DNA from: Heptranchias perlo
Lineage: Eukaryota
Reading direction: 5' to 3'
NCBI RefSeq assembly: GCF_035084215.1
Contig: NC_090344.1
Location: forward strand, 47,554,001-47,618,000
Length of the DNA stretch: 64,000 nt
Shown here one piece after another: positions 19 through 29,700 of the stretch. The translations under genes and the position numbers were made by a program. Each line of letters begins with the position of its first letter. The stretch's first letter is position 1. The notes under the pieces were generated by a model. That model made no database searches. It was not told where the DNA came from and saw only the letters and a program-made list of their open reading frames with translations.

Positions 19-32
19 AAAAGGAAGCTCAT
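19..32 (-). CDS. MOB1A: MOB kinase activator 1A, first coding exon (MSFL-F); rest of gene lies left of the window
   Basis: Minus strand reads ACC ATG AGC TTC CTT TT|GTAAGT: Kozak-like ATG, 14-nt exon matching the MOB1 N-terminus MSFLF, consensus donor. Synteny with MTHFD2 and SLC4A5 favours MOB1A over MOB1B. Confidence 0.8.
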
Positions 33-2324: not shown

Positions 2325-2403
2325 ATGGATGAAGATTTTGTCGTCAGAGTCCGTGGACTTCCATGGTCCTGTACCGCCGATGAAGTGTTGCGCTTCTTCT
2401 CAG
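2325..2403 (+). CDS. hnRNP H-like coding exon 1 ([26 protein letters not shown])
   Basis: qRRM1 start; donor CAG|GTTTTG. Confidence 0.9.
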
Positions 2404-5400
2404 GTTTTGTGAATTCATTTGAATGATTTGGCCGTTGTGGAAAAGTAGAACTGAAATGTTGAGGATGACTTAAAAGTTTGACTTTATGTGGCTGGGAGGG
2501 AATAAATATTTCATAAATTTACTTGGTGTGCAGAAGTATGGTAATTGGGGCTTTATCAGTTCATTAAAATGAAAATGATTTAGTTGGAGATGCTAAATGC
2601 AGTACTGCAACCATGACACTGCAGGTCTTTGAGTCTTGAATTTAAGAGGCATGCGAATTGGTGGGAGAAGTGATTCCTTCTATTAAGCATTCCTTGCATA
2701 CATGTATGATACATTCACATGAATGTGACTATTACTTTTGTGTATGGTTGCTTGCTTAAAGCATACTCAAGTGTTTAAAGTCGTCTCTTCCTGCTCATAC
2801 TTTGTGGTTACATGTGACCATAACTAAAAGGAAGAAAACTATCTTGGCATTTTCTCCCCATTGGGGGAAAAAACTACTCAAATTGTGACTTGAAAATAGT
2901 TGAATTGCATCACAGCTATGAACATCCTTGAGTAGTTTCTTCCCTGTTAAGCTGCATTGGTGAATGATAATGGTAGGCCTGATAATTTTGACATTTAGGC
3001 CAAATTTTGGAGAATATAGCAATTCAAATGCAAGGGTTTTCTAAACGTTCTTTATTCTGATGGTAGCTCTATGGGAGCAATGGTTAAAGTGTTAAAACTA
3101 AATAGCGCAACAGTGTCTGGTGCGGCAGAAATGCCTGTGGAAAAACTTGACTACAGTAAGAAGCAACGTGAGGAATAGCAGTTACTTGTTGCCTTTAGCT
3201 CCCATTTGAAGCACATTAATTTAGTTCAAGTAGCTTGTTAAACTGCATGCCATTTTAATCTTTATTTCTAGTGTTATAACTTATACATCTGATTTATTCG
3301 TGTGTAAAAATTTGTTTCTGTAGAGCATGATGTAATGATTTTAAATATCCCATTCATTCAATACCATTCCGAAGCCGCTATCTTTGAAAGAGAAAGTCAG
3401 TCTTAAAAAAAACACTCACATTTACTATAAAGTAACCACTAATCGAATCCTATAACAGGTAACTATAGAATTACTTTTGGGGGGGGGGGGGGATGACTTT
3501 TCCCATCCATCGTATATGACTTTTTTGCGGCTCTGCATTTGCGTACTCTCATGGAAAGACTGAGGCCTTTGCTGCAGCCTCATTCCTGCTCATTTCACTC
3601 TTGTTTAAAATGTGTAACTATACTATACAGTTTCAGTAATCAAATGATGGGAGTGCAGATCAAGCTGAGTTTGACTTGCTGTGGATTCTCCCACACTGCT
3701 TTTGAGCGCTCAGGCTGCCAGCCCAACCCTCGACCCTGTTCCCCTGCTTCTTTCCACAACCCACCAATATGTGGTCTTGAAGGTGCAATATGCTGTTGCT
3801 CAAATAATTTAGGTATCATTCATCTTTCTGTTGCGGCTGGACATCAAATCTCACACCCAAATTTAAGGCAGGTGAGCTGGACACATGTGATTTGCTAGAT
3901 GATTTGGCATACTTCGAAGGATCAACTATTTCTTTGTGTTAGAAGCTGAGGGCGGTGACTGGCTTGCTGCAAATTTGTATTGACTTGCAATTGACATGCT
4001 CTACACTTTCGGTACGGACACATGCATTTGCTTCACAATGCCATTGCTATGTTTTTTAAAAAACACACTTGTCCTGCTTCCAGTCCTCCCCTCAATGTAG
4101 CATGACAATTCAATAAGTCATGTATGTTTTTGGTTTTAGATTGCAAGATCTTAAACGGAACTACTGGGATACACTTCACCTATTTAAGAGAAGGCCGCCC
4201 AAGTGGTGAAGCTTTTGTTCAGCTGGAATCCGAGGAAGATGTAAAGCGTGCCCTTGCAAAGGACCGGGAAAGCATGGGGCATAGATACATTGAAGGTAAG
4301 CTGTTGTTTTTAAGCAGTCAGTTGACGTGACCAGCACCTCAGTTCAGAAGTCTTCATACTTAATGAATTCTTTGTGCCAGGTGCTTGTATCTGAGTGATG
4401 GAGTAGGGAGAAAACTAGAAGCATCAGCTTTTTTCTCAGAATCATGAGGCAGTATTTAGGTCTATGGTACTGGAAGCAGACAACATTTTAAGAGTGACAA
4501 AACTGTCTCTAAACATCTGCAGGCCCATTGATCTGCTGCGAAGCTTGGGAAAAATAATGGAATCTATTTAAAGGAGCAGGCTGAATGAATACCCACGCAA
4601 CAGGAACTTAAACAGCCAGTGTGAATTTAGGTTGGACAACGAGTTGTTATCTTAACATCTTCGATGCCTTTAATTAAAGGAGATAATAGAACTTTTGATC
4701 GTGTAGCTTCTTAGCATTTCAGACAGGTTTTGGCAGAAGTTCTGAATGTTTGTAATTAAACTGTAACTCTGGGGCATTTAAAATAAGACACAAGCTTGGA
4801 TGAATTGGCTTAAAAGAAAAGGTAACTCGAGTATTTGAGGTGTAATGATTGACTCGGTGCCTGCCAGGGAGTCATTAGGGGTGTTCAGTACTTAGCCCGT
4901 ATCGAAATAATTTGTATGCTTGTTGATTTTGCTGAGAACTTGAAAATAAGGAGACTAGAGATACAGCAAAAAGATTTAGATCACTTATGCAGTTAGGCAA
5001 AGAAATGGCAAATGAAATTAATATTAAGGGTTGTAAAGGGCCCATTGATTGAGAACTTGGGCGTGTGTGCCAATAAATGGGATTAGCTCACCAATGGGAG
5101 ACTTAAAAGGGTACTTGGGACTACACCATCTGGAGTTTGGAAGAATGAGAGGTGATCTCATTGAAACATGATATTCTGAGAGGGCGTGACAGGATAGGTG
5201 CTGAGGCTAATTCTCCTGGCTGGAGTGTCTCGCACTAGGGGGCATAGTCTCAGGCTAAGGGGTTGGCCATTTAGGAGGAATTTCTTCACTCTGTGATGTG
5301 AATCTTCGGAATTCTCCACCGTAGAGGACTGTGGATGTTCAGTCTTTGAGCGGTTCAAGATAGAGAGCGATAGATTTTTGGATTGTAAAGGAATCAAGGG

Positions 5401-8400
5401 ATATGGCAATCAGGCTTGAAAGTGGAGTTGAGGTTGAAGATCAGCCACAATCATTGAATGGTGGAGCAGGCTCGAGGAGCCGTATGGCCTACTCCTATTT
5501 CTTATGTAGTAATAGAATCGTGGCTTTCAGTTTACAGTGGTGTATGGTGTTCAGTTCTCATCACCATTTAACAAAAACTAAATGCATTGGAGAAGGTACA
5601 GAGAAAAGCAACAAGATTTCTAAAGTGAAAGGGGAAAAATGTGAGCAGGATCGATAATCTTAAGCTGTCCAGTCTAGAAAGAAGCCAATCTTAGAAGGGA
5701 GATCGAAAGGGCCGAGCAAGTATTTAGCTTTTCTCGTCCGTGACATTTTGCAGGAATACTTGCAGCTTTCGATGTTTGTTAGTATTTCCATTTGTGTTCG
5801 CAGTGTTCGAGACTAAAGCCACTGAAATGGACTGGGTACTAAAACACACTAACCCAAGTCAAACTGAGTCAACGAGTGATGGAACAGTGCGCCTTAGGGG
5901 CTTACCGTTTGGCTGCAGCAAAGAGGAAATTTTACAATTTTTCACAGGTACTTCTTGTTTATTTACTTTCTCCAATAATGGAGAACCAAGTATTTGGGCA
6001 TGTGGGACTGATGGGGTGGTGAAGTCACGGTAATTTTAAAATGGGATACTTTCATGAGGGGAAGATTGGGGAATATTTGTGAATGGCTGCAAGTTTTTAT
6101 TGTAAGCCTATTTTGCTGACATTAATCTGTAGAGAAACTATGATTTTGGATAGCCTGTCCAACGGTTATTTATGTTTGGCATTAATGCCCAAGGCTGATG
6201 AACGTATTTTTTTGTGGATGATCACCCTGACTTGGTAGCGTGGCACATAGAATTGGGCACAAGGGTTTTTTTTTGTAAATCCAAAAAGATTCTTTAAACT
6301 AGCAACTAAAATTTTTGTTAATGCCTTCGTGACAGTTTCCAACTTAGCACAGTGATTTACAATAAAGGCAATTCTTATAACATTACTTAAGAAATGCAAT
6401 TGCTGTAAACATGCAGACTAAAGAAAACTATGCTGGCTGTTTGGGGGACTTTGGTTGCAGTGTAGAGCAAAGGTCACAGGTTAGCTTCATAGTCGCGGCA
6501 AACAGTATTGGACCAAGTTCCCAAGCCACATTCGTATGTTATGGTGAACTATTCAAAGCTGCTATTTTGAGGGTGTGGGTGGCACTTGCGTTGACGAAAA
6601 GTTAGAGAACACTTAACTGAACTGCACAGAAAAGCTTCATATTGAAAATTCATGTGAAAAGTTTAAGACACAGTGGCTAAAATTAGTATTTTTGCTTTTC
6701 CATACACCATTCAGGATAAGAATTCTGATTTTCCAAAGAAAGTTAATCCTTGAGTCCAATCTTGTGAGCCAGTAATTATAAATTATATTCATCCTTATAT
6801 TTGAAGGAATAGTTCAGAATCTGTTGACCTTGTGTTAATATTTTCTAGTAACTTCAGCACTTGCAGTTGCCATGTATGTATAACTAAGGCCAGGGTTCCA
6901 TGAAAAACTAATTATTAAAAAAAAAATGAATTACAGCAGTTAGTTTAACCTTATTGTCACATACAGTCTTCCAACCAAATTTAGTGTTTTTTAATAAGTT
7001 GTTTGAATTTTTTCAGTTACTTTTATATGGAGTATTGCAAAATGTTTAAACACAAATTTAACACTAGTTATTTTAGAATCATATAATTCTGGTAATGCAA
7101 TGCAACTAAAACCGTTTTTGGTTGAACCATGGTGCTGGTACTCTAAACTATTCCTTTAATGTGATTGTATCCAGTCAAAATTTAAATCACTGGGTTCAGG
7201 CGGTACAGTGGGGCTGTGTTTTGGAATCTGATACGTTGCACCGCGGAGTAGTAGATGCAGGTATGTGCCTGCCATTCCCACGGAGTTTCCAAACCCAGCT
7301 TTGCCAATGTCGGGAGGTGTCCACCAAAGGCCAGGCACTTCCTCTGGTCAGAGGAGAGTGACTTGTGTTCATGCACCTTTAGCAGTTGGCTTCAGAGCCA
7401 TGTTGACTGGTCTCTCTTGTCCGCCTGCCCTCCAGGCTTATGCCTGAAGTGGGGAAACCCACACAAGGGATGAGAACTTAAAACGGGTATGTCTCCATTA
7501 AATTGGGTTCTTTTGTTTCCATGGTAACATTTTAAAAGACAGTTTCTGCTGATACAAATTATGTGTAAGATTTTAAGTTGTGCTACTGATGTCTCAGCAC
7601 TACAATCCACTGTAGTTACTGGCTGTGAAGAATTTATAACTGGACCAGAAGACTGAAGTAATCACAAACACAATCATTCATTATTATTACAACCACAAAG
7701 CCCTACTGTGTACCTCGATGAAAAATTAACATTTTTGCCCCTCGTGAAGGTGCCAACTGCTTGCTGGGTTATGTTCCACATGTGTGGTTCCTTGCTCAAA
7801 TGGCTAGTTTTCATGGTGAGTGTCAGCAAGGTTTTTAACCACTGTGGGGAGCATCTGAAGCTGTCCTTGCTGTGTGTCCAATCACAGTCCCGGTAGGGGT
7901 AACTGAATAGCAGGAATGAGAGTCCTGGCTGAGATGAGCTAACTTGGTGCAGAGTAGCAATCAAGAAACGGGCCTCCCAGAGCTGAGCCATTGGGGATCT
8001 GCCATGGAATTCCTGTTTCAAGATGTTAGATAGTTACTAAGCTCAGTTGAAATTGTTGCAGTAAATATTTCAGTCTCAAGTAATTAAAAATGTCAGAAAG
8101 GTTAGTCAGCATTTGAACAAGTAAACAAAGTTCAGTGACAATACAGTCCAGTCACCGAGTTGCCAGGCTGGTAACTGGATTGATATCCTTGCTAACTGTT
8201 TCTTCACAGTCAGTAACTTGCAGAACGTAATGTAAGTGGACACTTATATTTTAAGACCATGCTAAATTTGTGTATTGATGCAGAGTTTGCTTGGTGAATG
8301 CACTGGCTGCATAATGTTAATTACTTAAAGCAAAAAGATCCTGATTTTGTTTTTCTTTGACCTTTGGTTGTGAAACTTGATGCATTTGTATTTTTTTCCT

Positions 8401-11400
8401 CATTGAATTGTTTAATTCTTAGAACGGTCAATCCCAACTGTCAGGTTCTGTTACTAAGCAATAGGTAGGTTTGGTTACATGCTGAACTCTCGCCAAAAGA
8501 CACTGGCTTGATCAGCATTAAGTTTCTTAATTGTGAGAAGCTATTTATATAAATTCCTGAAGAATTGTAGCATTGCTGGTTTACCTCCATCATTGATCAT
8601 TTTCAACCAACGAGAAACTAGCTGTGGGCTGTTAGGCCTGGTAATTATATACAGAATGTATTGATGTGCAGTTTACAGCCAATGGGTGGCACTAAAGAAC
8701 ACATTCTGTTTCGCCTTCACTGGCTTGCACAGACAGTTGAAAGAAAGTCAGTGAGTCATTCCTGCATCGACCTTGCAGGTGTGGGCCCTTATTATGCAGA
8801 TGGCCATGTATTGATCTGGGGTGGAGGAAATCACATTTCCACTGATCATTCATAAGCAAAACAGTGGCAATGTATTGATTTCTTTAGTCGTGCATTTGTC
8901 ACTGCAAGCTGAGTATTGCCTGGGTTTTATGTCAAAAGTTTTTTTAAATTTCTGGTGGCACCAGTTTATTGGGATTTAGTTACCTGGATCGTTTCGTTTG
9001 AACCTGTTGTGGTTGTCGGCTGTTTTGTGTTCCCCCGAAAGTAACCAGTACAAATTAATCCAGCCTTCCCTTAGTTGCATTACATTTAAGTTTAGTAATG
9101 TTCCCTGATTTTAATATGTTGAAAATCACCAATGCTCCAGTTGGTTTCCATTACAGTTGTAGTGCTAAACCAATTGGAGCATTGCCACAGCAATTCCTTT
9201 TTAACAAATAAATTTTCATGCCTCCTTGCTACACTGCATCTCGCTAGTTTGGCTGCATGGTTACTATTTAATAATTCTATAAAATTTAATTCATGTTGCC
9301 AAACTTGGCTGTTGCAAGGTGAAGCTGAATTGTCCATGTTCTGTGCAAACTTTAAAAAGTGCACGCCTACATTTACCATTTTGTTTTTTGTTGGATCTTT
9401 GCTTTATTTAAACAGCATTCTGCAATCTTTTGCCTCATTAGTCAATTCTCATATCAGTACTCAACATTGATATGCTGTAGTATGTGTATAAGAGTAGGAA
9501 TGTTACAATTTTTAATATTGTTCCCCTTGATGGGGTATTTGTCCTTGGGTTGAAGGGTTGGAAATCGTGCCAAATGGGATAACATTGCCGGTGGACTACC
9601 AGGGGAGAAGCACGGGGGAAGCCTTCGTGCAGTTTGCATCAAAGGAGATAGCTGAAAAAGCACTGGGGAAACACAAGGAAAGAATAGGGCACAGGTGGGG
9701 ATGGACGGAAGGGTGGCTCATACGTCTTTAAGCCCACTTGTTCAGGTTGCAGAATTCATCCATTCTTGCAGAGAAAATAGTCGAACCTCCCACACGCCAT
9801 TGGAAAACTTGAGTGGGGACTCAACTGATTTTTCTAAATTGTGTGTAAAAGATGACCTATACTGTAGGGCCCTCTCTGAGAGCTGAAAAATGATTGTGAT
9901 GATAAATGGTAGTAATCTGGGCCTGCATGCCAGGACACTGAGTATTTGTAGTGCCAAAATTTAGTGTTTTTAAATGCTAAGCTTTGCCAAGTTTTGATTG
10001 TTCATAGTGGGCTCTACAGTTTAGGATTGTCCTCAATGTAAACACTAAAATTCCAATTGCTTGAATTTGATCCAATTTTTGTAATATTTACTTCCAGTTA
10101 CATTTGGATTAATTAAATTACATGTACAAAGTGAAGTTACAATTATTTTTGTAACATTTACAAACCCATATGATATTGTCGCGTTTTTTCCATTTTGTAG
10201 AATTATATCAGCTTCGTGCTTGAAGAGCACAGAGCACTGCAGGTGTCTATCTTCATCTAACCTAATGGAAAGATGATGACTAGTCAGCTTGCTGTGGTGC
10301 TGATTTACATATGAAATATTTCATTCTCCAGTAGAAATATATTGGACTGAAATCAGTATTTGGATTTGCATTCAGAAGAGTCAGTATAACTAGCTAATGG
10401 TGAAATTCGTCCCAAATGCTTGTGTTGTACTTCTTCAGATATCTTGCACGAAGTTTTATATTTTTAAAAAAAACAATGTCTGACTTGATGCCTTGTTCAT
10501 ACGTGCAGTTTGGAATTTTCAGTTTTGGAGAAGCCAGTTTCACAGGCCTGCGGTCAAACTAAGTTGGTCACCAACATTGTGATCTTAATTCCTGTTGGGA
10601 TTTTTTTTTTCTCCGCACAGCTTCCCCCAAAAGCCTTCGTTTGCTCAAAACTCGCTGATGTGTGGAATTTAGGTGACACCCTGAATAGTGCAGACTTCGA
10701 AGCAGATATGCAAAATGCATAACACATTGCTGCCCTTCATGGAAGCTGCATGAAGTATCCCTTGGATTGTATTTCCCAATTAATCTGAGATTATTTTGTT
10801 TAGTGCAGTTAACACTTTTTTTTACATGGCATATGTTCTGAGAATAAGGTTTTTGCAACCTTACTGAGTACCTAGGTGACCAGCTCGCTCCCAGGTTTCT
10901 GATGGTTGCATCCTGAAACCAGGTACAGCTACAGCATCCACAGGAAGTAAACCTAGGGAACATGCACTTTACTGAGGTTGGAATTGAGGATCATGCATCT
11001 CATGTTTTGGTGGCCAATGTGCTTTGCCATGTGTTTATGAAGCGTTTCTTTGAAATCAGTCTGCTGATTCAACTAGAGCACTGCAAGTAGTGGTAGATGG
11101 ACATTTCCATTATTAACCATTGCAGCCTTGAAGGAACACAAAATGCATGTAGTTTTTAATTTAGTTCAATCAATCCCATGGTTCCAATGTGTCAGACATT
11201 CTTTTTTTTAATCTAAGTGATGGAAGAATTTTTGTAAAATTTCAATAGCTGTCATATTTAAAGTCAGTTTAAATTAATAACATTAATTATGCTAAGACCA
11301 ATAGTGTTTTTAAACGCTAAAGTAGATTATGGTTGCTCTGGTGAAAAGTTAATTTTGCTATGCATTGTGAATTAAGACGTGCCATTAATTGATGAGCAAG

Positions 11401-14400
11401 TGGCCTTGTTGGGGTGCCATCCAATTAGAATGGGTGAACCTGCCACTTAATTCCACTCAAATGGTGCTGGGGTGTAATGGGTGCATTTGAATATCTTTTA
11501 AGTTTCAGTTAACAACTCAATAATGCATAAATGTATTTACAAACTTGTTAAGAGTAGTGCACCAACCACTGTTACCTCACTTGTTTTCAAAGCATGGAAA
11601 GTCCAGCAAGTATCATCATTTAGCTATTGGTGTAAAGTGCACTCCCCATCTTTTTGAACCACACTGTTGGCCCTGACATTCCAGTCTGGTTCTAAGATGA
11701 ACAGTAACAATAGCTGTCTGCTTTTCCTTAAGCCTCCATGAATGAGGTGTTGTGCTGTATTTTTTTTTTAAAAATAGCCTGCTTCAAAGGTGCTGATTCA
11801 GTTTCTTTGGTAGGGATGTTTTGCAGATTGTGATGCTTTTTTAAAAAAAATAGTTTTAATCTAACTGTGAAGGTGGGGAAAGAAGTGGCTGAAATTGAAA
11901 AATGGGGTTTTAGAACAGCTTTTCACCAGAGGAATCTGCACTCATTAGATTAACATTTTTAGCTATGTGGTGATTATAGTTGTAGCCATAAGGTAAATAT
12001 ATTAATTGTGGCTGTTTAGGTATATTGAAATCTTCAGGAGCAGTCGAGGTGAGGTTCGAGCTTATCACGACCCTCCGAGAAGGTTAATGGGACAGCGGCC
12101 AGGACCCTATGACAGGCCAATGGGTGCAAGAACTGGCTATGGTGGTCCGGGGCCGATGAGAGGAGACATGTTTGACCGCTCACGCCGGGCATCTGCATAT
12201 GGTGGAGGTAAAAACATGTGAAGTTTTAATGATTTTGGTCCATTGGTGCCCCTGGCAAATTTTGAATTCATCGTTTTAAGTGGGGTACTGGGTACAGATC
12301 AAATTTATTTTGAATGATTCTTTTCAGTTCATGAGCACTTCCCTTTTAGTTGCGCCAGATCTTTTTGATACGAGGAAGTTTTAAAGATTCTCTTATTTTT
12401 TGCAGCTTGATGGTGTGTATCCTGGCCTTAAAAACAAAGATGTTTACATCTAACAATACGAGGAAATTCATTGAATGGGGATGCAATTTTAACTGGATAC
12501 AAGTTGTGTTTTGGTCATATCTTGCCAGAATTCTAAATTTATTTTTCTCTGTAGGTTATGGCAACTATGATGATTATGGTTATAATGACAACTATGGCTA
12601 TGGACGTGATGGCTATGGACACAATTCCAGAGGTGGTGGAATGATGGATCGAGGTGGGAGTCTCAACTGTTGGATGAAATTTCTGGTCTACATATTTGCT
12701 GTGGGGAGAAGACTTGTGTTAAAGCTGGAACTTGATTGATAATTTTAGCATCGGGCATTTGAAAAATTAGCTAGGAGCAAACAAGAAATCAAATAAGAAT
12801 TCCTCCTTCCTCCCCCTGGACCATGGCCCTACCGACAAACATCAAGCCATGGTTTCCCAGACAGTCACTGACCTCATCTCCTCTGGAGATCCCCCATGGC
12901 CTCCAACCTCATAGTCCACCAATCCCACACAGCCCGCTTCTACCTTCCCAAGTTCCACAAACAGGACTGCCTTGGGAGACCTGTCGTTTTAGTCTGTTCT
13001 TGCCCCATGGAACTTATTTCCTCCTATCTCAACTCTTTCTCCCCTTGTCCAATTTCTTCCAACCTGCATCCGCGACTCTTCTGGCCCCCCTCTGTCACTT
13101 GGACAGTTTCCAGTTCCCCAGCCCGAACCGTCTCCTTTTCACCGTGGATGTCCGGTCCCTCTACAGATCCAACCTGCATCAGGACGGCCTGCGGGTTCTC
13201 CGTTTCTTGAACTGAGGCCCGAATTAGTCCCCATCCACCACCACCCTCCTCCACCTGGCTGAACTTGTTCCAGCATTAAACAACTTCTCCTCTGACTCTA
13301 CTCATTTCCTCCAAATAAAAGGTGTCGCTGTGGGAATCCCATATGTGTCCCAACTATGCTTGCCTTTTTGTGGAGCATTCCTTTCAGTCCTACTCGGGTT
13401 ACGCCCTCACCTCTTTTTCCGGTACATTGTCAGTGTCGCTTCCTGCTCTCGCCCCGAACTGGAAAATTTCATCAACTTGGCTTCCAATTTCCACCCTTCA
13501 CATGGTCCATTACCTTGACTTCACTATCTCTATTTCTGGGGATAGGCTGTCAGCCAATATCTATGAGAAGCTCATCGACCCCCCCGCCCCCTCCCCAACC
13601 AAAACGGCTATCTTAATTACGCTTCTTCCCACCCTGCTTCCTGTAAGGACTCTATTCCCTACTCAGTTTCTCGGACTCAGTCGCATCTGTTCTGATCATG
13701 CCACCTTCCAGACCAGTGCTTCAGATATGTCTTCCTTTTTCCTCACCTGAGGATTCCACTCCACTGTAATTGATAGGGCCCATGACCATGTCTGTCCTGT
13801 TTCCCACACTAATGCCCTCACCTCTTCCCTTCCTTCCCAGAACCATGATAGGGTCTCCCTTGTCCTCACCTTCCACCCCACCAGCCTCCACATTCAGCAC
13901 ATCATCCTTTGCCATTTCCGCCACCTCCAGCGCGATCCCACCACCAAATACATCTTTCCCTCCTAGCATTTTGAAGGAACAGCTCCCTCCGCGACACCCT
14001 GGTCCACTCTTCCATCGCCCGCTCTCCACTGCACCTTCCCGTGCAGGAGATGCAAATTTCACCTCCCTTCTCACTGTCGAGGGCCCCAAACACTCCTTCC
14101 AGATGAAGCAGCGACTTACTTGTACTTTTAATTTAGTGTACTGTATTTGCTGCTCACAGTGCAGCCTCCTCGACATTGGGGTGACCAATCCCAGATTGGG
14201 TGATCGCTTTGCTGAAAACCTATGCACTGTCTGCAAGAATGACCCTGACCTGCCGGTTGCTTGCCATTTTAATTCTGCATCCCACTCTGACCTCTTTAGT
14301 CTTACACTGTTCCAAATAAGCTCAAGGAACAGAACCTTGTCGTTCGTTTAGGCGCTTTACAACCGTCTGGACTCAACATTGATTTCAATAACTTGAGACC

Positions 14401-17400
14401 ATAATCACTGCTCCCTTTTTTATTGATCTGGTTATGCTGCTGCCATTCACAGCTCCTCCAGACCAATCTTTTGTTTCTTAACTTGTTCCATTACCACCCT
14501 CCTTTCCTTGCACAGTCATCCCTTTTGTCATTTAATCACTCTTGCCCTCTACCCTATCGCAGATCTTCCCTTTTGTTCTTTCTTCCTTTCTCTCTTACCC
14601 CCAACCCCCCCCCCTTGGCTTTATGCTTGCTTAAAAACTGTCAACTCTTTAATATTTTCCAGTTCTGACGAAAGATGTTCGACCTGAAACGTTAACTTTC
14701 TTTCGCCACAGATGCTGCCTCACTTGCTGAGCTTTTCCAGCATTTTCTGTTTTTAAACAAGAAATCAATTGGTTTATTACCCCATGAATGCGTTAAACTA
14801 ATTGCTATTGGAATTACATGTCAAGTTTGTACTGTAGAGATGAAATAAGTAAACTGATGTGTGATAACCTACTGGTGGGGGGGAAAATAACTCATTTGTG
14901 GCAGAGACATGCATGGATGTCTGAATATTTGTTTGTCTTTTGAAATGTGATTTGGGTTCTGGCTTTAGGCACCTTCCACTCTGAATTCAGGTTCTAATGT
15001 TTTGAATGACTATTAATGTGCTTTGATTTATTCAGGGATGGGCAACCGTGGTTATGGTGGAGCAGGAGATGCCAGCCCCCTCTTTCAGAATGGTACAGGT
15101 CATTATGTACACATGAGAGGATTACCTTTCAGAGCTTCTGAAGGAGATGTTGCTGATGTAAGTATGACTTTTGGGAATTATATTCCTTCGTCAATGTGTC
15201 TTACGTGGGAAAGGAAGTCTAATGTAAAACTTCAGGACAAATCAGTGAAAACTTTGGGGAACAAATGTCTTTCTGCCACACTCATTTCAAGTATGAGCAA
15301 TTTGTCAATTTAGTTTCTAATTTTATACTCTTGTATGTGCATAAACTGAGAAGAGGAGCTTGGTGATAGTGAGTTGGTATACTGGTTTTTCACTTTGCAA
15401 ACTGACTCAAACCCACTGTTGGAATGGAAGTTTCCTGCCTGTAAGATCATGTGTGAAATGAGTGTTGGTATTTAGAACCCAGTGTTCATGGGCCACAGCA
15501 CAACACTGCATATTTAGCACTGGTCATCTCTTCAGTTGACCCAGCGCTTCATATTACATTTGAAGTGTGCTGTACTTGACCTGGCAGTGCTCCATACTGA
15601 CATGAGCTGCCCAAAATCAAATTCCTGTATTTCCACCACCAGCATCCCTCATTTTGAACACTGACACTAAGAATGTTTGTTTTGCTTTGTTACACAATAC
15701 GGGGGGTGGGGGGGGGGTGGATTCAAATACTAAATACGCCATTTACAACTGTTCAACTTCCATTCCCTGTAGTTTTTTTCACCGCTGATTCCTGTAAAGA
15801 TCAATTTTGAATATGGTTCTGATGGTCGCCTGACTGGAGAGGCTGACGTTGAGTTTGCTACTCATGAAGATGCTGTTGCTGCCATGTCTAAAGACAAAGC
15901 ACATATGCGTGAGTACTTTATCATGTAATGTGCTATGAATGGAAGGCTAACTACCATGTAGTTCAGGGATAACATCTACATAAGTTAGGCCTGTTTAATT
16001 TATTTTGCCTTTTTGAGAGCGCATGTATGTAACTAGTTTATCTCCATTCTATTCCCTTTTGTATTGTCCAAACGTTGCCTTGTATTTGGAACGGCATCCT
16101 CCATGAGAGTGTCCTGGCAAGGTTGATTTCAAATTTGAGTCAAGGGATCTGAGAAGTATCTTGTCCCATCTGTCACTGCAAGATTTAAACAGTGACTCTT
16201 ATAATTCTGTGTTTCATTTAAGAGCTCAACTGTCATGTTGGAAATCAAGACTGGTGGCTTTCTCCCATGTCAATAGTGTGCCTTTTTAACAAGCTCAATA
16301 AAGAATTTTGATTGCTGTTTTCATCCTGTTGTGCATTTAGCACAAATTGTGTAATACATACTTCTGTATTTTCCAGTTTTTTATTAATATTGTTTTGTAA
16401 ACATTCAAAAGTGAGCTTAATTGCTTTTGGACATGGTGCTCATTCTGAAACTGTTTGTTTGCTAATGTGCAATCACAAATGTGAAATCATGTACGTTATT
16501 AACTGAAATTTCACATCTTTTTAGAACATCGATATATTGAGTTGTTCCTGGACTCAACTGCCAATATGGGAAGTGGGCCTGGTGCTTATGGAAACCACAG
16601 AATGGGTGGCATGGGCATGGGAATGGATCATTATACGACAGGTGGTTATTGTAAGATTCTGACATATTTTACATTTGTAAAGCTATTAATTCAAAATGTC
16701 CATTATGACTAATATGCAATGTCTGGTATAGTGATGCTTCTCAGTTTCAAAAAAGCAACAAAAAAATTTGTGGGCCTGAGCTAAAGTCCAAAGTTTGGGT
16801 GAGGGTGATTCTGAATCCATCAAATCATGTTGACATTAGAGTGTTAGTTTCTGTTGACTTACAAGCCAGTCAAAATGGATGAAGGACTTCGGTTATGTGG
16901 CTAGACTGGCGAAGCTGGAGTTTTATTGCTTGGAACAGAGATGGTTGTGAGGAGATTTGGTAGAGGTATTCAAAATCATAGGTTCTGGACAGAATAGATA
17001 AAAAGAAACTGTTCCCATTAGCGGAAGGGTCAAGAACCATAGATTTGAGGTGATTGGCAAAAGAACCAAACATGACATGAGGAAAAAGTTTGTAACACAG
17101 CGAGTGGTTAGCATCTGGAATGCACTGCCCGAGGGGGTAGTTGGAGGCAGATTCAATCGTGGCCTTCAAAAGGGAATGGGGTATGTACTTGAAAGTAAAT
17201 TTGCAGGGCTACAGGGATAGGGCAGGGGGGTGGGATGAGCTGGATTGCTCTTGCAAAGTGCTGACGTGGACTCTGGGCCGACTGGCCACCTTCCGTGCTG
17301 CAACCTTTCTGTGATTCTGTGGTCAATTGTTCTGTTAACTGTGATGCTAAACTGACACAAAATGTCTGCTACACCTGTAAACCAAGAAACACTGGAATGT

Positions 17401-18780
17401 TTTTTGCCTGATTTGTGAAGACTTTTGTACCACGGGCACATTAGCTTCCAGATGTTAATTTTACTGATGTTGACCAATTAAATGTTCGGTGACAAGTTAT
17501 GAGGGCAGTTGGCTGAAGCATGGATACCGGAAATATCCATTTATAACGCAAATACATCAACACTGCCCTTGGAGAAAATTCCATTAGATAAAGTGGTTCT
17601 CTTTTTCCCCCCCCCAGCTATTTATTCAAACCACTCCCCTAAACTGACCAAAATTAATTAAGTTAGCCATCTTATAAAATCTGTACTTCTTCGCTTTAAG
17701 GCATGTTTGCCTCTCGGCATGGCATTTTGAGACTTCTCCTGCAGGTGTACATCTTGTTTTGAATGTAGGTAGTTCGCATGTTGAATTTCTCGTGCCGTTG
17801 AGTGTAGTGTGACCAGCAGAAATGACAAACCATGCAGATCGTATATTGACTGCCTGGCTTTTGGCAGAGGGTGGTTTGAAAATTATATACTGTGAAGTGG
17901 TTGCAGTGGCATTTATTAATGTCCTTGCTTTGGGGTGTGTTTTCCTTGCAGGGAGACAAAGGCTACAATTATGCTGCGCTAAATGTTTAATGGTCTCTTG
18001 AAGGGAAAGCATTTGATACCTTGGGGCTTCAGTACGTATGACTATCTCCTGCCATATTGCCTCTTTTGTGTTTGTGCACTGCGCTGCTTGGAAAAAGTGG
18101 CAGAATAATTGTACTCGAGCAGGATGGTGGCTGCTCTTGGGTGCCACCTGTGAGCAACGTCATGAGTGGCACAGGCATGGGAGCAAGTTGATGACTGTTG
18201 CTCTTGATGATTCAAGATGGAGGGATTGATGAAACATCTAAACATTTTCTTTTGATACACAGGCAACCAAGGAGGCTATGGGCATAACAGTCAGGGTATG
18301 GGAAATAGCTATGGCAATATGGGAAGTAACTATGGTGGATATGGAAATGCTGGAAACACACGTGGATTTGGTAAGTGTTGTTGCTGCTTGTCCTGAATCT
18401 TTGGTTCCCAAATATTGATCAGGCTTCCTTTGCAAACAAACATGCTGTTCGGAGAATTAGTTGCAAGTATAATGGTAAAAGTAAAGTTCATGCAATTGAA
18501 TGAAGAGTGGTTGGCCGTATTAAGGATTGAAGAGCAGTTCACTAGGCTGTGCTTCCCTTCTACATTTATAACGTTACTTTGTGCACTCTAAACTTAAGAT
18601 GTTGGTGCTTAAGTAGTTTTTGAGAAATGCAAATCAGGAAATGGCTTTTCTTCAAAATTGTGTTTTTTTTTCATTATAGGCTACGGTGGTATGGGAGGAG
18701 GTGGGTATTCCAACAACCCCAATCAGAACATGGGAATGGGAAACTTGGCAGACACAAACATGGCTGGATGGAGAATGTAA
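2325..18780 (+). CDS. hnRNP H/F-family protein (H1/H3-like), 3 qRRMs plus Gly/Tyr-rich regions, 462 aa, 11 coding exons
   Basis: join(2325-2403,4140-4295,5804-5947,9556-9694,12020-12207,12555-12653,15036-15157,15773-15908,16525-16641,18263-18370,18680-18780) = 1389 nt, all GT-AG, phases compatible, no internal stop. Motifs [26 protein letters not shown], three HRYIE ends. Confidence 0.92.
4140..4295 (+). CDS. hnRNP H-like coding exon 2 ([13 protein letters not shown]...MGHRYIE)
   Basis: TTTTAG acceptor, GTAAGC donor, qRRM1 [11 protein letters not shown]. Confidence 0.93.
5130..5505 (+). mobile_element. CR1-type LINE 3' fragment
   Basis: AGAATGAGAGGTGATCTCATTGAAAC...GGTGGAGCAGGCTCGAGG; same family as 48200-49258. 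Confidence 0.7.
5804..5947 (+). CDS. hnRNP H-like coding exon 3 ([15 protein letters not shown]...ILQFFT)
   Basis: CGCAG acceptor, GTACTT donor, qRRM2 start. Confidence 0.93.
9556..9694 (+). CDS. hnRNP H-like coding exon 4, 139 nt ([27 protein letters not shown]...KERIGHR)
   Basis: TTGGGTTGAAG acceptor and GTGGGGATGG donor, as recalled for the conserved HNRNPH1/H3 exon. Confidence 0.95.
12020..12207 (+). CDS. hnRNP H-like coding exon 5 (YIEIFRSS...QRPGPYDRP...AYGG)
   Basis: TTTAG acceptor, GTAAAA donor; contains the PY-NLS-type RPGPY motif. Confidence 0.93.
12555..12653 (+). CDS. hnRNP H-like coding exon 6 ([15 protein letters not shown]...MMDR)
   Basis: CTGTAG acceptor, GTGGGA donor; GY-rich linker. 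Confidence 0.85.
12793..14754 (+). mobile_element. Degenerate Penelope-like element (RT + GIY-YIG endonuclease) with 14-bp TSD and 3' hammerhead motif
   Basis: Frameshifted RT motifs ([26 protein letters not shown]) and a GIY-YIG-like region ([27 protein letters not shown]). AAACAAGAAATCAA duplicated at 12779-12792 and 14755-14768. Confidence 0.88.
14661..14697 (+). ncRNA. Minimal type I hammerhead ribozyme motif in the Penelope 3' repeat (stem II degenerate)
   Basis: AGTT-CTGACGA-A-[stem II]-GAAA-CGTT-AACT: stem I AGTT/AACT, palindromic AACGTT in place of stem III. Confidence 0.6.
15036..15157 (+). CDS. hnRNP H-like coding exon 7 ([14 protein letters not shown]...[16 protein letters not shown])
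   Basis: TTCAG acceptor, GTAAGT donor; qRRM3 start. Confidence 0.92.
15773..15908 (+). CDS. hnRNP H-like coding exon 8 ([10 protein letters not shown]...[25 protein letters not shown])
   Basis: CTGTAG acceptor, GTGAGT donor; qRRM3 core. Confidence 0.93.
16525..16641 (+). CDS. hnRNP H-like coding exon 9 ([13 protein letters not shown]...DHYTT)
   Basis: TTTTAG acceptor; donor AG|GTGGTT, with an alternative same-phase donor GTAAGA at 16651. Confidence 0.8.
16878..17320 (+). mobile_element. CR1-type LINE 3' fragment
   Basis: Closely similar to 32040-32488 (GATGAAGGACTTCGGTTATGTGG...TGGAATGCACTGCCCGAGGGGG). Confidence 0.8.
18263..18370 (+). CDS. hnRNP H-like coding exon 10 ([14 protein letters not shown]...TRGF)
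   Basis: ACACAG acceptor, GTAAGT donor; G/N/Y/M low-complexity domain. Confidence 0.85.
18680..18780 (+). CDS. hnRNP H-like last coding exon ([11 protein letters not shown]...MAGWRM*)
   Basis: T-rich TATAG acceptor; TAA at 18778-18780; GWRM end resembles the HNRNPH3 C-terminus. Confidence 0.85.
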
Positions 18781-20034: not shown

Positions 20035-20040
20035 AATAAA
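20035..20040 (+). terminator. Candidate polyadenylation signal of the hnRNP H-like gene
   Basis: AATAAA about 1.25 kb after the stop, closing a U-rich repeat-free 3'UTR-like stretch. Confidence 0.5.
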
Positions 20041-23705: not shown

Positions 23706-23797
23706 ATGGCTCAGAGCAGCGGCCCGCTCCGCACCGCCATCGCCAGCCTGGGCAGGGCCTGCACCCAGCACCGCCGCTTGCACCTCACCGCCCCGAG
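23706..23797 (+). CDS. MTHFD2: MTHFD2 exon 1, mitochondrial transit peptide ([31 protein letters not shown])
   Basis: AACATGG Kozak; Arg-rich, no acidic residues; AG|GTAGGC phase-2 donor fits exon 2. Confidence 0.88.
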
Positions 23798-26700
23798 GTA
23801 GGCAATCATTCGCCATGCTTTAGGAATGAAAGATCGTGGTAAGAAAGGACAAGGGAAGTAGAGGGAGAGAACTGACCGTCCTGTGCCGGTCTCTCGCTCT
23901 TTGAAGACCCAGCGGTCTGCGATGTATTACCCGGCTTGGCTGCCGGGGGTTCCCACCCCCCCCCCCCCCCTCTTCCTCCCTCCCATGTTAATGTGGGGTG
24001 CTCGGCTCGGCTCGCCTGCCTGCCTGCCAGCGTGCGGCACTGAATGATGAAATATCTCCAGCTGCTTACGCGATTTGCGGTCCCGCTGAACATGAGGCGG
24101 CGGAGGGAAAGGCTTTTTCTAATTCATTGTCTGTCGGTAAAACTTCCCCAGAAGTGCGGGCGACGTGCAAATAAAATGCAGCCTTCCGCTATCTGATTCC
24201 GGCTCATGTTTCATTTCATTATTTTTTTTTTTGGCGGGAGGAGGGAGAGTAGACCCCACTAAATAAAAATGCGCATTATTACTAACATTCTGGGTTGTGA
24301 ATTAAATTGTTTCCTGGTTGAGGTTTTTGTTCCAAGCTCTCCGCCCCCTAATTTCGGATCATATTTATTCTTCTACTTGTCTCTGATGTTCCCAACTCTT
24401 AGTGAAATGCCGCAGCGAAGCGAGTTTGTGCTGAACTCAATGTATAATGTAAATTTAGCACGGTATCATATTTTCTGACTGGCTGGCGTCAATGTTTGAA
24501 TCACATGTCACAAGCCATTCAGCCCTTCCCACTCACTGGGTCAGTACGTTGCTTGCGCGATCGGTTGTGGATCCCAGTCAAATCTGGATCTCGGTCAGTC
24601 ATTTCCTTTCCGAATGCTCCAACAGAGTCCATTCTGGTAAAATGATACAAAAATTATATCCGTCTGGGGGTGTTTTTTTAAAATATTTTGAAAAGCCTAG
24701 AGGTTAGTGGTTGCTGTATGGTACTGAATGAAAAGCTAAGATGTATACAGCAAATAATCGCATTAGTCAGTTCCATTTGATCGCATTTCCGTTGAGAAGG
24801 CTTTTTTTAATAAAAATCTGTCTTGTAAACTGATTCCATAGGGGAGTTATTCGAAGTTTGCAATTCCTTATTTGACCATCTCCAATCGCCATTATTTTTA
24901 AGTTCATGGGATTCTTCAACGATACACGTTTAAAATAGCAGCTGTCGATACTAAATCAGGAGGTTGGACAGTTACTCTGCCTATCAGTTCTCCACCAGTT
25001 TCCAGGAATCGCTAGTTACACTGCCAGTGAGATATATTTAAGTCCAGTTAATGGCTTACTGTAAGTATCGTGACTGTTGAAATGTATAGGGAAGCGTTTT
25101 TGGTTGATGTTGAGTCAGGGAAAACGTGTTGCATATTCCGAAACCTGCCACCAACATTGTAGCTCTCCGGACAAAAAAAAATACAACTTTTGACCATTTC
25201 TTCTCCCGTGCACACACTTCACCCAGAATTGGGAATCATTTAACAACTGATATTTGGCTATCTGGTTCCTTCTCCCTCCATTTGATCATAATTAATGTAT
25301 ACAGTGCCAAAAGTAAATTGGGAGTTTGTGTCAAACTTGTTACCATTTATGCAAATATTTCCAGCATGTGTTACAACGTGCCCAGCACTGCATTTGATGT
25401 GGCTATGTCCCTTCAATATATTTAACTACTAGGAGCAACTGTTACTTTTTTTAATTTGATATTTTGTTTGAACAACGATTGCTGATAACGACATGGGGGA
25501 AAATTTGGGTTGGAGGTGTTAATGTAGCCCTATGTGTTGGGCTATTGAACGCCTCCAACTTGTGAGGAAAAGTTAAATGACAGGGTGGCTGAAGTACTCT
25601 TGCTCTGAAGTCAACCTTCATCCAGCACTCTGTAACTCTTCAACTCAACTCCCTAAATGAAGAAATCAGCACTCGTTTTTAAACTGAGATCAACGAGCCG
25701 AAGGTTAATTCCTCATCACCATTATTTAAAATAAAAGGACGGGTAAATCTCCTTTTATGATGGGCATAACACCACACAAGTTTTGTCAACTTTCTCTGTT
25801 CTGACTGGTTTGACGTGCTTTGATCTGTTGCAGTGTCTGTTCGTCTTCGCTGGACTTTCCCGTTCTAGCTCCTCCTTATTGCGCTTCCTGAAAAGCTTCA
25901 ATCCATGGTAAAAGGCACTAAAACTTAGATGCTATGCTTTTTGGAAAGTTGCTCTATTTCCCAATGTTGTGGTTTATTGAGTGGTAATCTCATTCCCATT
26001 GGACCATTCAGCCACAGAGGGCTTTATTTCCCCTTCCTTTGAATGCCCTGACTCTCTCTGAGAAATGGGTCTCATGGGTGATGGCAGCCCTCTAGTCCTT
26101 TGCCAAAGTGGCTGTTTATGCATGAGTTTGGACAGTGAGTATCTGTAGACGACGGGACACCGGCTGAGCATCAAAACCAAGTTTGACCTGGTTCTCAGCC
26201 CATGCCCACATAAGCACTTTCCAATAGGCTCATTGGATAGAGATCAGGAGCAGGAATCCAAGCCAACCCTCCCCTTCTCTTGACCTGGTTGACTGAGGCC
26301 AATTGTAGCACCTGCCCTTATTGACATGAACTAATTTGCCACAGACTGAGAATCAGGTCTATGATCTTTATGGTTTAGTATCACACCATTCTGTTGTCGT
26401 TGTTGCTTTGATTCTATTGGGAAATATAGAAATGTAATTATCGGTGAAACAGCTTCGATGTTTCGTTGAGTTGGGCATCCTTCGATGTTGCGTTCGATTA
26501 AGGGGACATCTTCATTTACGGGGAAGGGAGTGGTGTTCGATGTGATTCTCGGTCTGTGCTGCTGATAGCAAGAGGACTGTTCATGGAGTGCCCATTTAAT
26601 ATCTGTTGTTCTTGTCAGGCAAGCAATCCGACATCCAATTTTAAATTGCCATCCTTCTGTTCCAATCCCTTCATGGCGATGCTCCTCCCGATCTCTCCAA

Positions 26701-29700
26701 CCTTCTCAAGCCCGACAAATCCACCATCCCACCAAGCTGTCTGATCCTTTTGGCTCTGGCCTCTTGTGCATTGTTCCCCCTCACCTGACCATTGGCGGTT
26801 GTGGTTTTAGCTGACTGGACCCCATGCTCGGGAAATCCCTCCCCAAACTTTCTCCATCTCACCCCCACTCTCTCCTCCTTTGACCACCGCTCTTTTCTTC
26901 TCTTTGTCNNNNNNNNNNNNNNNNNNNNNNNNNNNNNNNNNNNNNNNNNNNNNNNNNNNNNNNNNNNNNNNNNNNNNNNNNNNNNNNNNNNNNNNNNNNN
27001 NNNNNNNNNNNNNNNNNNNNNNNNNNNNNNNNNNNNNNNNNNNNNNNNNNNNNNNNNNNNNNNCCCCCCCTCTACCCCCCCCCCCTCTTCCCCCCACCCT
27101 CTTCCACCCCCCCTCTTCCCCCCCCCCTCTTCCCTCCCCCCCCTCTTCCCTTCCCCCCCCTCTTCCCCTCCCCCCCCTCTTCCCTTCCCCCCCACTTCCC
27201 TTCCCCCCCCTCTTCCCTTCCCCCCCCTCTCCCTTCCCCCCCTCTTCCCTCCCCCCCCTCTCCCTCCCCCCCCACTCCCTTCCCCCCCCCCTCTTCCCCT
27301 TCCCCCCCCCTCTCCCATCCCCCCCCCCCACTTCCCTTCCCCCCCCCTCTTCCCTTCCCCCCCCCTCTTCCCTTCCCCCCCCCTCTTCCCTTCCCCCCCC
27401 TCTCCCTTCCCCCCCCCCTCTTCCCCTCCACCCCCCCCTCTTCCCTTCCCCCCCCCCTCTCCCTTCCCCCCCCCTCTACCCTCCCCCCCCCCTCTTCCCT
27501 TCCCCCCCCCCTCTTCCCTTCCCCCCCCCCCTCTTCCCTTCCCCCCCCCCTCTTCCCTTCCCCCCCCCCCTCTTCCCTTCCCCCCCCCCTCTTCCCTCCC
27601 CCCCCCTCTTCCCTTCCCCCCCCCCTCCTTCCCCCCCCCCTCTTCCCTTCCCCCCCCCCACATCCCTTCCCCCCCCTCTTCCCTTCCCCCCCCCTCTCCC
27701 TTCCCCCCCTCTTCCCTTCCCCCCCCTCTTCCCTTCCCCCCCCTCTCCTTCCCCCCCCCTCTTCCCCTCCCCCCCCCTCTTCCCTTCCCCCCCCCTCTCC
27801 CTTCCCCCCCCCTCTTCCCTTCCCCCCCTCTTCCCTTCCCCCCCCTCTTCCTTCCCCCCCCTCTTCCCTTCCCCCCCCTCTTCCCTTCCCCCCCCCTCTC
27901 CTTCCCCCCCTCTTCCCTTCCCCCCCTCTTCCCTTCCCCCCCCTCTTCCTCCCCCCCCTCTCCCTCCCCCCCCTCTTCCCTTCCCCCCCCTCTTCCCTTC
28001 CCCCCCCTCTTCCCTTCCCCCCCCTCTTCCCTTCCCCCCCTCTTCCCTTCCCCCCCCTCTTCCCTTCCCCCCCCTCTTCCCTTCCCCCCCTCTTCCCCTT
28101 CCCCCCCCCCTCTTCCCTTCCCCCCCCTCTTCCCTTCCCCCCCCTCTTCCCTTCCCCCCCCTCTTCCCTTCCCCCCCCTCTTCCCTTCCCCCCCCTCTTC
28201 CCTTCCCCCCCCCCCTCCTTCCTTCCCCCCCCCCCTCCTCTTTCTCCCCCCCCCCCTCCTCTTTCCCCCCCCCCCTCCTCTTTCCCCCCCCCCCCCTCCT
28301 CTTTCCCCCCCCCCCCTCCTCTTTCCCCCCCCCCCCTCCTCTTTCCCCCCCCCCCTCCTCTTTCCCCCCCCCTCCTCTTCCCCCCCCCCTCCTCTTTCCC
28401 CCCCCCTCCTCTTTCCCCCCCCCCCCCTCCTCTTTCCCCCCCCCCCCCCTCCTCTTCTCTTTCCCCCCCCCCCCCCCCTCCTCTTCTCTTTTCCCCCCCC
28501 CCCCCCTCCTCTTCTCTTTTCCCCCCCCCCCCCCTCCTCTTCTCTTTCCCCCCCCCCCCCCCTCTCTTCTCTTTTCCCCCCCCCCCTCCCTCTCCTCTCT
28601 CTTCCCCCCCCCCCCCCCTCCTCTTCTCTTTCCCCCCCCCCCCCCCCTCCTCTTCTCTTTCCCCCCCCCCCCCCTCCTCTTCTCTTTCCCCCCCCCCCCC
28701 CCCTCCTCTTCTCTTTCCCCCCCCCCCCCCCCCCTCCTCTTCTCTTTCCCCCCCCCCCCCCTCCTCTTCTCTTTCCCCCCCCCCCCCCTCCTCTTCTCTT
28801 TCCCCCCCCCCCCCCCCTCCCCTCCTCTTCTCTTTCCCCCCCCCCCCCCCTCCTCTTCTCCTTTCCCCCCCCCCCCCCCTCCTCTTCTCTTTCCCCCCCC
28901 CCCCCCCCCTCCTCTTCTCTTTCCCCCCCCCCCCCCCCCCCCCCTCCTCTTCTCTTTCCCCCCCCCCCCCCCCTCCTCTTCTCTTTCCCCCCCCCCCCCC
29001 CCCCTCCTCTTCTCTTCCTCCCCCCTAATTTCTCCTTCTCTGGTTCTGTGCTTCTGTGGAGTGCTTTAGGATCTTTTTCTACATTAAAGGCAAGTTGATG
29101 TCCCCTATCTGGGGACTGAATATTAAATTGATTTTTGGAATAGGGGCTTGCTGTGCCCACTCCATGCATCGGCCTGGTATTGCAGTGCTTCCAGGAACGG
29201 TGCAGCTCCCTTTGGGGAGATTTTAAAAACAAAAAACAGATTTTTGGAGCATGTATTATTACTATAATCGGTATAGTTTATTAAAAAATAGAATTTGGTT
29301 AATGGATATAAAACAGTCAGCATAGAATTCTTGAGGCAGGCCCTAATGCATCTTGTGATGGGTGGGTGAGGGGAGATTTGGATACACATTTGAAACCGAA
29401 GAAGATGCTGGACTATGGGTAAAGAGCAGGACTGGAATTTTGGATTGCTCCAGCTAAGCGCTGATTAATGCACGATTGCTCATCTGCCAGATGCCTGTGC
29501 TTCATTCTATAAATGAATGAGGGGTGACCTAATAGAGGTCTTTTAAGGTTATGAAAAGGTGGATGTTGAGAAGATGTTTCCACCTGTGGGGAGGCCAAAA
29601 CTAGGGGCCATGAATGTATGGTGGTCACCAATAAACCCAAGAGGGAATTCAGGAGAAACTTCTTTACCCGGAGAGTACTTGCTACCACAAGGAGTGGCAC

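Follow-up and report, generated by a model that had tools for sequence, protein, structure and literature searches.

The closest described relatives of the gene reported here are HNRNPH3 (hnRNP 2H9), which lies beside RUFY2, HNRNPH1, which lies beside RUFY1, and GRSF1, which is head-to-head with MOB1B. GRSF1 is mitochondrial, and the family has disease ties, with HNRNPH1 in lymphoma and HNRNPH2 in a neurodevelopmental disorder. In the part of Lamb 2021 used here (PMC8040251), which covers curated ohnologs of seven bony vertebrates, paralogon 14 contains the row GRSF1, HNRNPH1, empty, HNRNPH3. Other rows of that part read RUFY3, RUFY1, empty, RUFY2; SLC4A4, SLC4A9, SLC4A5, empty; DCK, DCKL, DGUOK, empty; and TET2, empty, TET3, TET1. 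None of the seven species (gar, reedfish, frog, two birds, opossum, and human) has an entry in the third column of the first row, and the common topology of the columns is given as ((A,B),(C,D)). The empty column, quad C of the paralogon, corresponds to the SLC4A5-DGUOK-TET3 segment. Here we describe an intact gene of the hnRNP H family that sits on that segment in the shark Heptranchias perlo, within a window of 64,000 nucleotides (contig NC_090344.1, positions 47,554,001 to 47,618,000 of the forward strand; positions below are those of the window). We consider it very likely that this gene is a fourth copy from the two rounds of vertebrate genome duplication, lost in the bony-vertebrate ancestor, and that its product would be a nuclear G-run splicing regulator that limits itself by skipping of exon 4. 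Fourth ohnologs retained only in cartilaginous fishes are a known pattern. In the available part of PMC12019251, nkx2.5l is a fourth NK4 ohnolog of cartilaginous fishes, and not of bony fishes, on the evidence of synteny and a tree. It is likewise a fourth genome-duplication copy, present in shark and skate, although it belongs to a different gene family and has been described in print.

The window gene has 11 coding exons within 2325-18780 of the plus strand. The joined exons amount to 1398 nt and encode 465 aa, with GT-AG boundaries at 10/10 introns and a single terminal stop. Every residue of this model is identical to database protein P0204, a shark protein with the source name "hnRNP H3-like isoform X1." A sequence-only reading of the window had described a complete 462-aa, 11-exon gene with three quasi-RNA recognition motifs (qRRMs). 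The gene is indeed intact, with 11 exons and three qRRMs, but the gene model encodes 465 aa. The 462-aa form is isoform P0206, in which the exon 9 donor lies 9 nt earlier and three residues are missing from the end of exon 9. The features of the gene are as follows.

830 to 882 (start approximate), plus strand: likely non-coding first exon, placed by a GT donor at 883 and an acceptor before 2288
2325 to 2403, plus strand: coding exon 1, start codon and start of qRRM1
4140 to 4295, plus strand: coding exon 2, qRRM1; 156 nt in all four paralogs
5804 to 5947, plus strand: coding exon 3, end of qRRM1, linker, and start of qRRM2; 144 nt in all four paralogs
9556 to 9694, plus strand: coding exon 4, qRRM2; 139 nt, a G-run-rich cassette conserved as DNA
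12020 to 12207, plus strand: coding exon 5, end of qRRM2 and RPGPYDRP nuclear-import motif
12555 to 12653, plus strand: coding exon 6, Gly/Tyr/Arg-rich region
15036 to 15157, plus strand: coding exon 7, GGAGDAS and start of qRRM3
15773 to 15908, plus strand: coding exon 8, qRRM3 with clade markers LIPVKI and RLTGEAD; 136 nt in all four paralogs
16525 to 16650, plus strand: coding exon 9, end of qRRM3; alternative donors separated by 9 nt, giving 465 or 462 aa
18263 to 18370, plus strand: coding exon 10, Gly/Asn/Met/Tyr-rich tail
18680 to 18780, plus strand: coding exon 11, GWRM end and stop
20035 to 20040, plus strand: candidate poly(A) signal, the first AATAAA past the stop

Pfam finds three RRM_1 stretches in the protein, and its closest PDB match is human hnRNP H qRRM1-2 (E 4e-97). 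The RGLP and HRYIE motifs, which have a role in G-run binding in hnRNP F structures, are intact in 3/3 qRRMs (aa 10/110/296 and 73/171/355, respectively). After qRRM2 comes RPGPYDRP, a PY-type nuclear import signal (aa 199-206). The same RPGPYDRP is the Karyopherin-beta2-binding signal of HNRNPH2 (residues 206-213) in the accessible part of a preprint (bioRxiv 10.1101/2023.01.20.524964). Low-complexity regions rich in Gly and Tyr are found at aa 207-287 (30% Gly, 12% Tyr, and 11% Arg) and aa 367-465 (32% Gly). At the sequence level, the protein has three hallmarks of the hnRNP F/H family: three qRRMs with their motifs, the import signal, and the Gly/Tyr-rich regions.

Two further observations concern the introns. 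If the ATG at 814 is transcribed, a short frame would start there and span intron 1 (814-882, 2288-2331). This frame closes just past the main start codon, out of frame with the main open reading frame, and is a possible upstream open reading frame. Intron 6 contains a GC-richer insert (approximately 12800-14420) with the look of a decayed retroelement, presumably resembling Penelope-type elements.

Two different exon queries each led to the same four loci in the genome and no more, on contigs that we call C23 (the window), C24, C14, and C1. Gene models made from the DNA, together with their nearest named proteins, identify C24 as H3, C14 as H1, and C1 as GRSF1. In all four paralogs, exons 2, 3, 4, and 8 are 156, 144, 139, and 136 nt long and have the same phases. 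Within this genome, identity of the window protein is 66% with H3, 63% with H1, and approximately 58% with GRSF1 (first two domains). The sequence-only reading had called for separate HNRNPH1 (RUFY1) and HNRNPH3 (RUFY2) loci to be looked for, and both were found, each adjacent to a RUN-domain gene. Because separate H3, H1, and GRSF1 loci exist in the same genome, the window gene is not a moved H1 or H3. We rejected it as the HNRNPH1 ortholog, since it is outside the H1 clade and the true H1 is on C14 beside a RUN gene. We also rejected it as the H3 of this genome: the true H3 is on C24 beside a RUN gene, and a profile search of contigs, which sets a lower bound, gave no RUN-domain match on C23.

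Gene order around the four loci was compared next to the published rows, with neighbor families searched as lower bounds and RUFY1-3, DCK, DGUOK, TET3, and SLC4A numbers assigned by Pfam family and position. The order on C1 is SLC4A(-), deoxynucleoside kinase(-), MOB1(-), GRSF1(+), RUN(-), and MTHFD2-type(+). On C14 it is SLC4A(-), deoxynucleoside kinase(-), H1(+), and RUN(-), and on C24 it is H3(+) and RUN(-). C23 has a deoxynucleoside kinase(+), then approximately 360 kb, then TET(+), MOB1(-), the window gene(+), MTHFD2(+), and SLC4A(-). Therefore, H3, H1, and GRSF1 each adjoin a RUN-domain (RUFY-type) gene, and the core of C23 is the C1 order minus that gene. The mirroring of GRSF1-MOB1B that had been proposed from the window is borne out, because C1 repeats MOB1(-), the family member(+), and the MTHFD2-type gene(+). 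TET matches were found on C23 and C4 and none on C24 (a lower bound). With one member per paralogous segment and matching neighbor order, the four loci fit the five rows of Lamb 2021 quoted above (PMC8040251). This position makes origin by genome duplication likely. The ((A,B),(C,D)) topology in turn predicts H3, in the fourth column, as the sister of the window gene; that sisterhood rests on how the chromosome segments are paired in the publication and not on our trees.

Some other features of these loci were noted. A third deoxynucleoside kinase gene is directly upstream of H1 (C14:38031841-38033257, minus strand) and matches the "DCKL" column of Lamb 2021 (PMC8040251), which in the part used here is present in fish, frog, and birds and blank for opossum and human. 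C1, C14, and C23 together hold three of four possible deoxynucleoside kinase copies. For the H3 gene on C24, the listed isoforms P0126 and P0128 end in another frame; the conserved Gly-rich GWRMY end is obtained when the penultimate exon is spliced from a donor 3-5 nt earlier.

The distribution of the gene was followed by protein searches, of which we used the best 120 of 324, 120 of 987, and 150 of 5208 matches. Among the matches listed, nine cartilaginous-fish clusters ranked best, followed by a drop from 518 to 402 bits to true H3. Counting cluster members, orthologs occur in 21 named cartilaginous-fish species (sharks, rays, skates, and chimaera). Their source names are H3-like, H-like, H2-like, or hypothetical, with named isoforms, much as the sequence-only reading had expected when it predicted H1/H3-like labels from automated pipelines. 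In a FastTree phylogeny (245 rows), the orthologs make up 40 rows, all of them from cartilaginous fishes, and group as one clade with support 100. The motifs LIPVKI, FLDST, and RLTGEAD are in 39/39 clade members and in 0/356 other fetched proteins. There was no bony-vertebrate ortholog among the matches listed, and the clade includes 0/53 bony H3 rows and 0/107 bony H1/H2/F rows. Summed BLAST scores were also used to assign 149 unnamed representatives to their nearest group, but the result was too noisy to rely on; 11 were nearest to the clade by small margins, and none of these had LIPVKI, FLDST, or RLTGEAD. One Callorhinchus protein, P0010 (source name hnRNP H2), is identical to Callorhinchus H1 (P0039) for 142 aa and H3-like after that. 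It is likely to be an assembly chimera of H1 and H3 transcripts, because the switch falls inside conserved exon 4.

These results bear on when the gene was lost. The sequence-only reading had it lost in mammals, which is too narrow, because the slot is empty across the bony vertebrates of the published row, from gar and reedfish to human. Loss at the base of bony vertebrates is likely. It is not shown for all of them, because only best-ranked matches were used and coelacanth was seen only through GRSF1. Survival of the gene in some bony vertebrates where it has gone unnoticed (coelacanth, lungfish, or bichir), with later and repeated losses, could hide in the same gap, and fast-evolving copies could rank low. 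However, we think this unlikely given that 0/160 bony H1/H2/F/H3 rows are in the clade, that the three marker motifs separate it completely from the 356 other fetched proteins, and that the part of Lamb 2021 used here (PMC8040251) has no entry for gar or reedfish in this slot.

We also built IQ-TREE phylogenies of 53, 33, and 34 rows, which were picked by hand with one isoform per species. Proteins of <250 aa were left out of the 245-row tree, P0010 was left out of the picked sets, and the 34-row set includes lamprey, three invertebrates, and bony GRSF1. In the 53-row tree, the clade of the window gene has support of 100/100, has chimaera at its base, and is outside H1. The H1 clade (100/99) unites sharks and bony vertebrates, and F and H2 nest in tetrapod H1. 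The 34-row tree has a group of shark and bony H3 without the window gene (support 85). Similarly, sharks and bony vertebrates are united in both the H1 clade and the GRSF1 clade, and neither includes the window gene. A duplication older than the shark-bony fish split fits these groupings, with the evidence weakest for H3. The case that the sequence-only reading had set against itself, a gene nested in H1 or H3 with no copy at the canonical locus, is not what the loci and the best trees show. Its central proposal, a 2p13-paralogon member from the vertebrate genome duplications, is supported by the four loci, the MOB1-GRSF1 mirror, and these trees. Approximately unbiased (AU) tests rejected a shark-only copy of H1 (p 0.0004, 0.0002, and 0.0007 for 33 rows, 34 rows, and 34 rows with a mixture model) and a shark-only copy of GRSF1 (p 1e-7 and 0.0006 for 34 rows without and with the mixture model). 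The predicted topology, ((window gene,H3),(H1,GRSF1)), was not rejected (AU p 0.59, 0.52, and 0.44), but it was never the best tree.

A duplicate of HNRNPH3 that arose in early cartilaginous fishes only, and then moved beside MOB1A, deserves closer attention. H3 is the closest paralog by protein identity, it has GGAGDAS, the GWRM end, and a 188-nt exon 5 in common with the window gene, and the flanks of exon 4 are slightly nearer to H3 (43/52 and 21/25) than to H1 (39/51 and 19/25). Exon 5 is 179 nt in H1 and GRSF1, which also fits the pairing expected from genome duplication, although we give its length little weight because GRSF1 is unalignable there. Such a duplicate would have had to insert, all introns included, at the one place, and in the one orientation, that agree with both the GRSF1 locus and the empty column. 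The H3 contig has no MOB1 or MTHFD2-family match, and therefore the window gene was not carried along with its neighbors. Synonymous identity in exons 2, 3, and 8 is no higher to H3 (15/32, 15/30, and 15/37) than to H1 (15/39, 15/31, and 19/36). Trees that enforce this origin are 9-12 log units worse in likelihood. Taken together, we regard an H3 duplicate as highly improbable.

Even so, several points weigh against a fourth copy from genome duplication that bony vertebrates lost. The AU test rejected a shark-only H3 duplicate in one of three settings: p was 0.058 and 0.12 under LG+G4, which does not reject, and 0.029 under the mixture model, in which site profiles were taken from the free tree. 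The best trees never pair the window gene with H3, and its placement is weak: with H1 in the 53-row (80/68) and 33-row trees, with H3+GRSF1 in the 34-row tree, and outside all three in the 245-row tree. Alignment columns that side with H3 number 4 and those that side with H1 number 5, and at the 4 H3 columns lamprey or the outgroups often share the state. Neighbor order was examined in the Heptranchias perlo genome alone. The bony absence rests on listed protein matches and a curated table, not on bony genome sequence, and the named matches listed included neither an H1 nor an H3 from coelacanth. Therefore, the trees place the origin of the gene ahead of the divergence of sharks and bony fishes with reasonable but not full strength, and position carries the rest.

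The duplication reading also depends on GRSF1 being one of the four. If GRSF1 predates the genome duplications, then the window gene is the third surviving H copy rather than the fourth of four. The GRSF1 branch is very long (1.1 in the 53-row tree), GRSF1 is without the conserved exon-4 element (93/139 nt), and its row in the part of Lamb 2021 used here (PMC8040251) carries the annotation "+Tunicate?". Nevertheless, when lamprey and three invertebrates are included, GRSF1 falls inside the jawed-vertebrate group (82). It also has the same lengths and phases of the four invariant exons, and each segment carries a single family member, always in the same slot. We therefore consider an older GRSF1 unlikely and retain the fourth-copy reading.

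The window gene does not look like a decaying or silent copy. Its frame and splice sites are intact, its qRRMs are 88-99% identical to those of the chimaera ortholog (74/84, 79/80, and 75/79), its path length to chimaera in the 53-row tree is approximately 0.13, like the 0.12 of H1, and named isoforms exist in 21 species. On this sequence evidence, decay can be practically discounted. The kept motifs, import signal, Gly/Tyr regions, chimaera identity, and H1-like rate lead us to predict, by analogy, a nuclear splicing regulator that overlaps with H1 and H3. From its likeness to human HNRNPH1/H2, the protein would enter the nucleus through its RPGPYDRP signal, bind G-runs, and regulate splicing.

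Exon 4 suggests how its level might be controlled. In DNA, exon 4 of the window gene matches H3 at 133/139 nt and H1 at 127/139, and it is 91-96% identical among the three genes, compared with 62-77% for exons 2, 3, and 8. Codons for the same residue are identical at 39/44 (H3) and 34/40 (H1) positions in exon 4 and at 38-53% in exons 2, 3, and 8 of the three genes. The likeness extends into both introns, and GRSF1 does not share the element. Exon 4 with its flanks has 10 G-runs, and its G-run density is the highest among all 11 exons. Skipping of exon 4 would shift the frame and end translation after 148 codons, with the stop 120 nt ahead of the next junction and six junctions downstream. In the available part of another preprint (bioRxiv 10.1101/686956), human HNRNPH1 limits itself by exon-4 skipping and nonsense-mediated decay (NMD). 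The window gene has the same arrangement in its sequence, a frame-shifting exon in G-runs with an NMD-type stop on skipping. By analogy with HNRNPH1, excess protein may cause exon 4 skipping, an early stop, and NMD, so that the protein limits its own level.

A more speculative extension is that H1, H3, and the window gene formed a shared dosage circuit in the jawed-vertebrate ancestor, with one exon-4 element read by all three proteins. We find this conceivable, but would not bet on it. Sharks would then retain the whole circuit, and cross-buffering might have allowed bony vertebrates to drop the window gene. GRSF1 would have exited by loss of the element, and tetrapods would later have re-expanded the family from H1 (F and H2). 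If true, the shark trio would make cross-paralog feedback after genome duplication directly testable.

The protein had also been read as a mix of H1-like and H3-like features. The features are present, including the GWRM motif, but most of them reflect shared ancestry. qRRM1 is kept in shark, fish, and amphibian H3 and is missing only in bird and mammal H3 rows. Shark H3 and H1 both contain VEFATHED, TLPVD occurs in lamprey, and RPGPYDRP is common to all of them. Only GGAGDAS and the GWRM end are common to the window gene and H3 and are not in H1 or lamprey. On this sequence evidence, the protein seems to descend from the ancestral gene with little change rather than to be a hybrid.

How the gene differs from each relative can now be stated. 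It resembles HNRNPH3 in phases, GGAGDAS, the GWRM end, and exon 4. Unlike HNRNPH3, it has its own locus and clade, MOB1A and MTHFD2 as neighbors, and the markers FETK, LIPVKI, and FLDST, and it keeps the qRRM1 that bird and mammal H3 rows do not have. With HNRNPH1 it shares three qRRMs, the import motif, and the exon-4 cassette; zebrafish-style "hnrnph1l" names belong to the H1 clade and not to this gene. GRSF1 matches it in slot, orientation, MOB1 upstream, MTHFD2-type gene downstream, and lengths of exons 2, 3, 4, and 8. However, GRSF1 is without RPGPYDRP, the Gly/Tyr regions, and the conserved exon-4 element.

The flanks of the gene are as the sequence-only reading described them, head-to-head with MOB1A and upstream of MTHFD2-SLC4A5, in that MOB1(-), MTHFD2(+), and SLC4A-family exons were all found. 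We take the MOB1A and MOB1B labels from diagnostic residues compared by eye. The neighboring features within the window are as follows.

19 to 32, minus strand: first coding exon of MOB1, head-to-head with the hnRNP gene; ATG and 14 nt, then a GT donor
240 to 830, no strand: likely bidirectional promoter of MOB1 and the hnRNP gene, judged from position and CCAAT words
23706 to 43516, plus strand: MTHFD2, first to last matched exon, from PF02882 matches at 41101-41232 and 43409-43516 and from translations

MOB1, on the minus strand, has its start codon at 32, and this 14-nt exon is the only MOB1 coding part inside the window; three more MOB1 exons are 5-10 kb upstream of the window. Minus-strand SLC4A-family exons start 134 bases past the window end. 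MTHFD2 intron 1 includes a 155-base N run followed by approximately 2 kb of C/T-rich simple repeat (26909-29030). Elsewhere in the genome, two genes that we take to be MOB2-like are on different contigs, C43 and C12, and are possibly another retained duplicate. PF02882 exons with near-equal scores on C971 and C10:83.31-83.33 Mb suggest a duplicated or redundantly assembled MTHFD1-type segment.

A prior description of the gene was not found in the literature searched; subscription papers and orthology databases lay outside that search, so one may exist there. The main text of the whale shark genome paper does not have the term "hnRNP," and the accessible portions of the skate and hagfish genome supplements have gene labels only and no description of this gene. 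The gene is real and automatically annotated but misnamed, and it is likely to be the missing fourth member of the hnRNP H/GRSF1 set. At least 21 genomes carry the naming error (H3-like, H-like, or H2-like).

The window gene completes a four-member set where the bony-vertebrate record shows three. The history of the family would then be one ancestral gene between MOB1 and RUFY that gave rise to H1, H3, GRSF1, and the window gene. Three qRRMs would be ancestral, with one lost from amniote H3, and GRSF1 is supported as a true duplicate with a changed job. Finally, the exon-4 element common to H1, H3, and the window gene provides a natural setting for testing feedback between duplicates.

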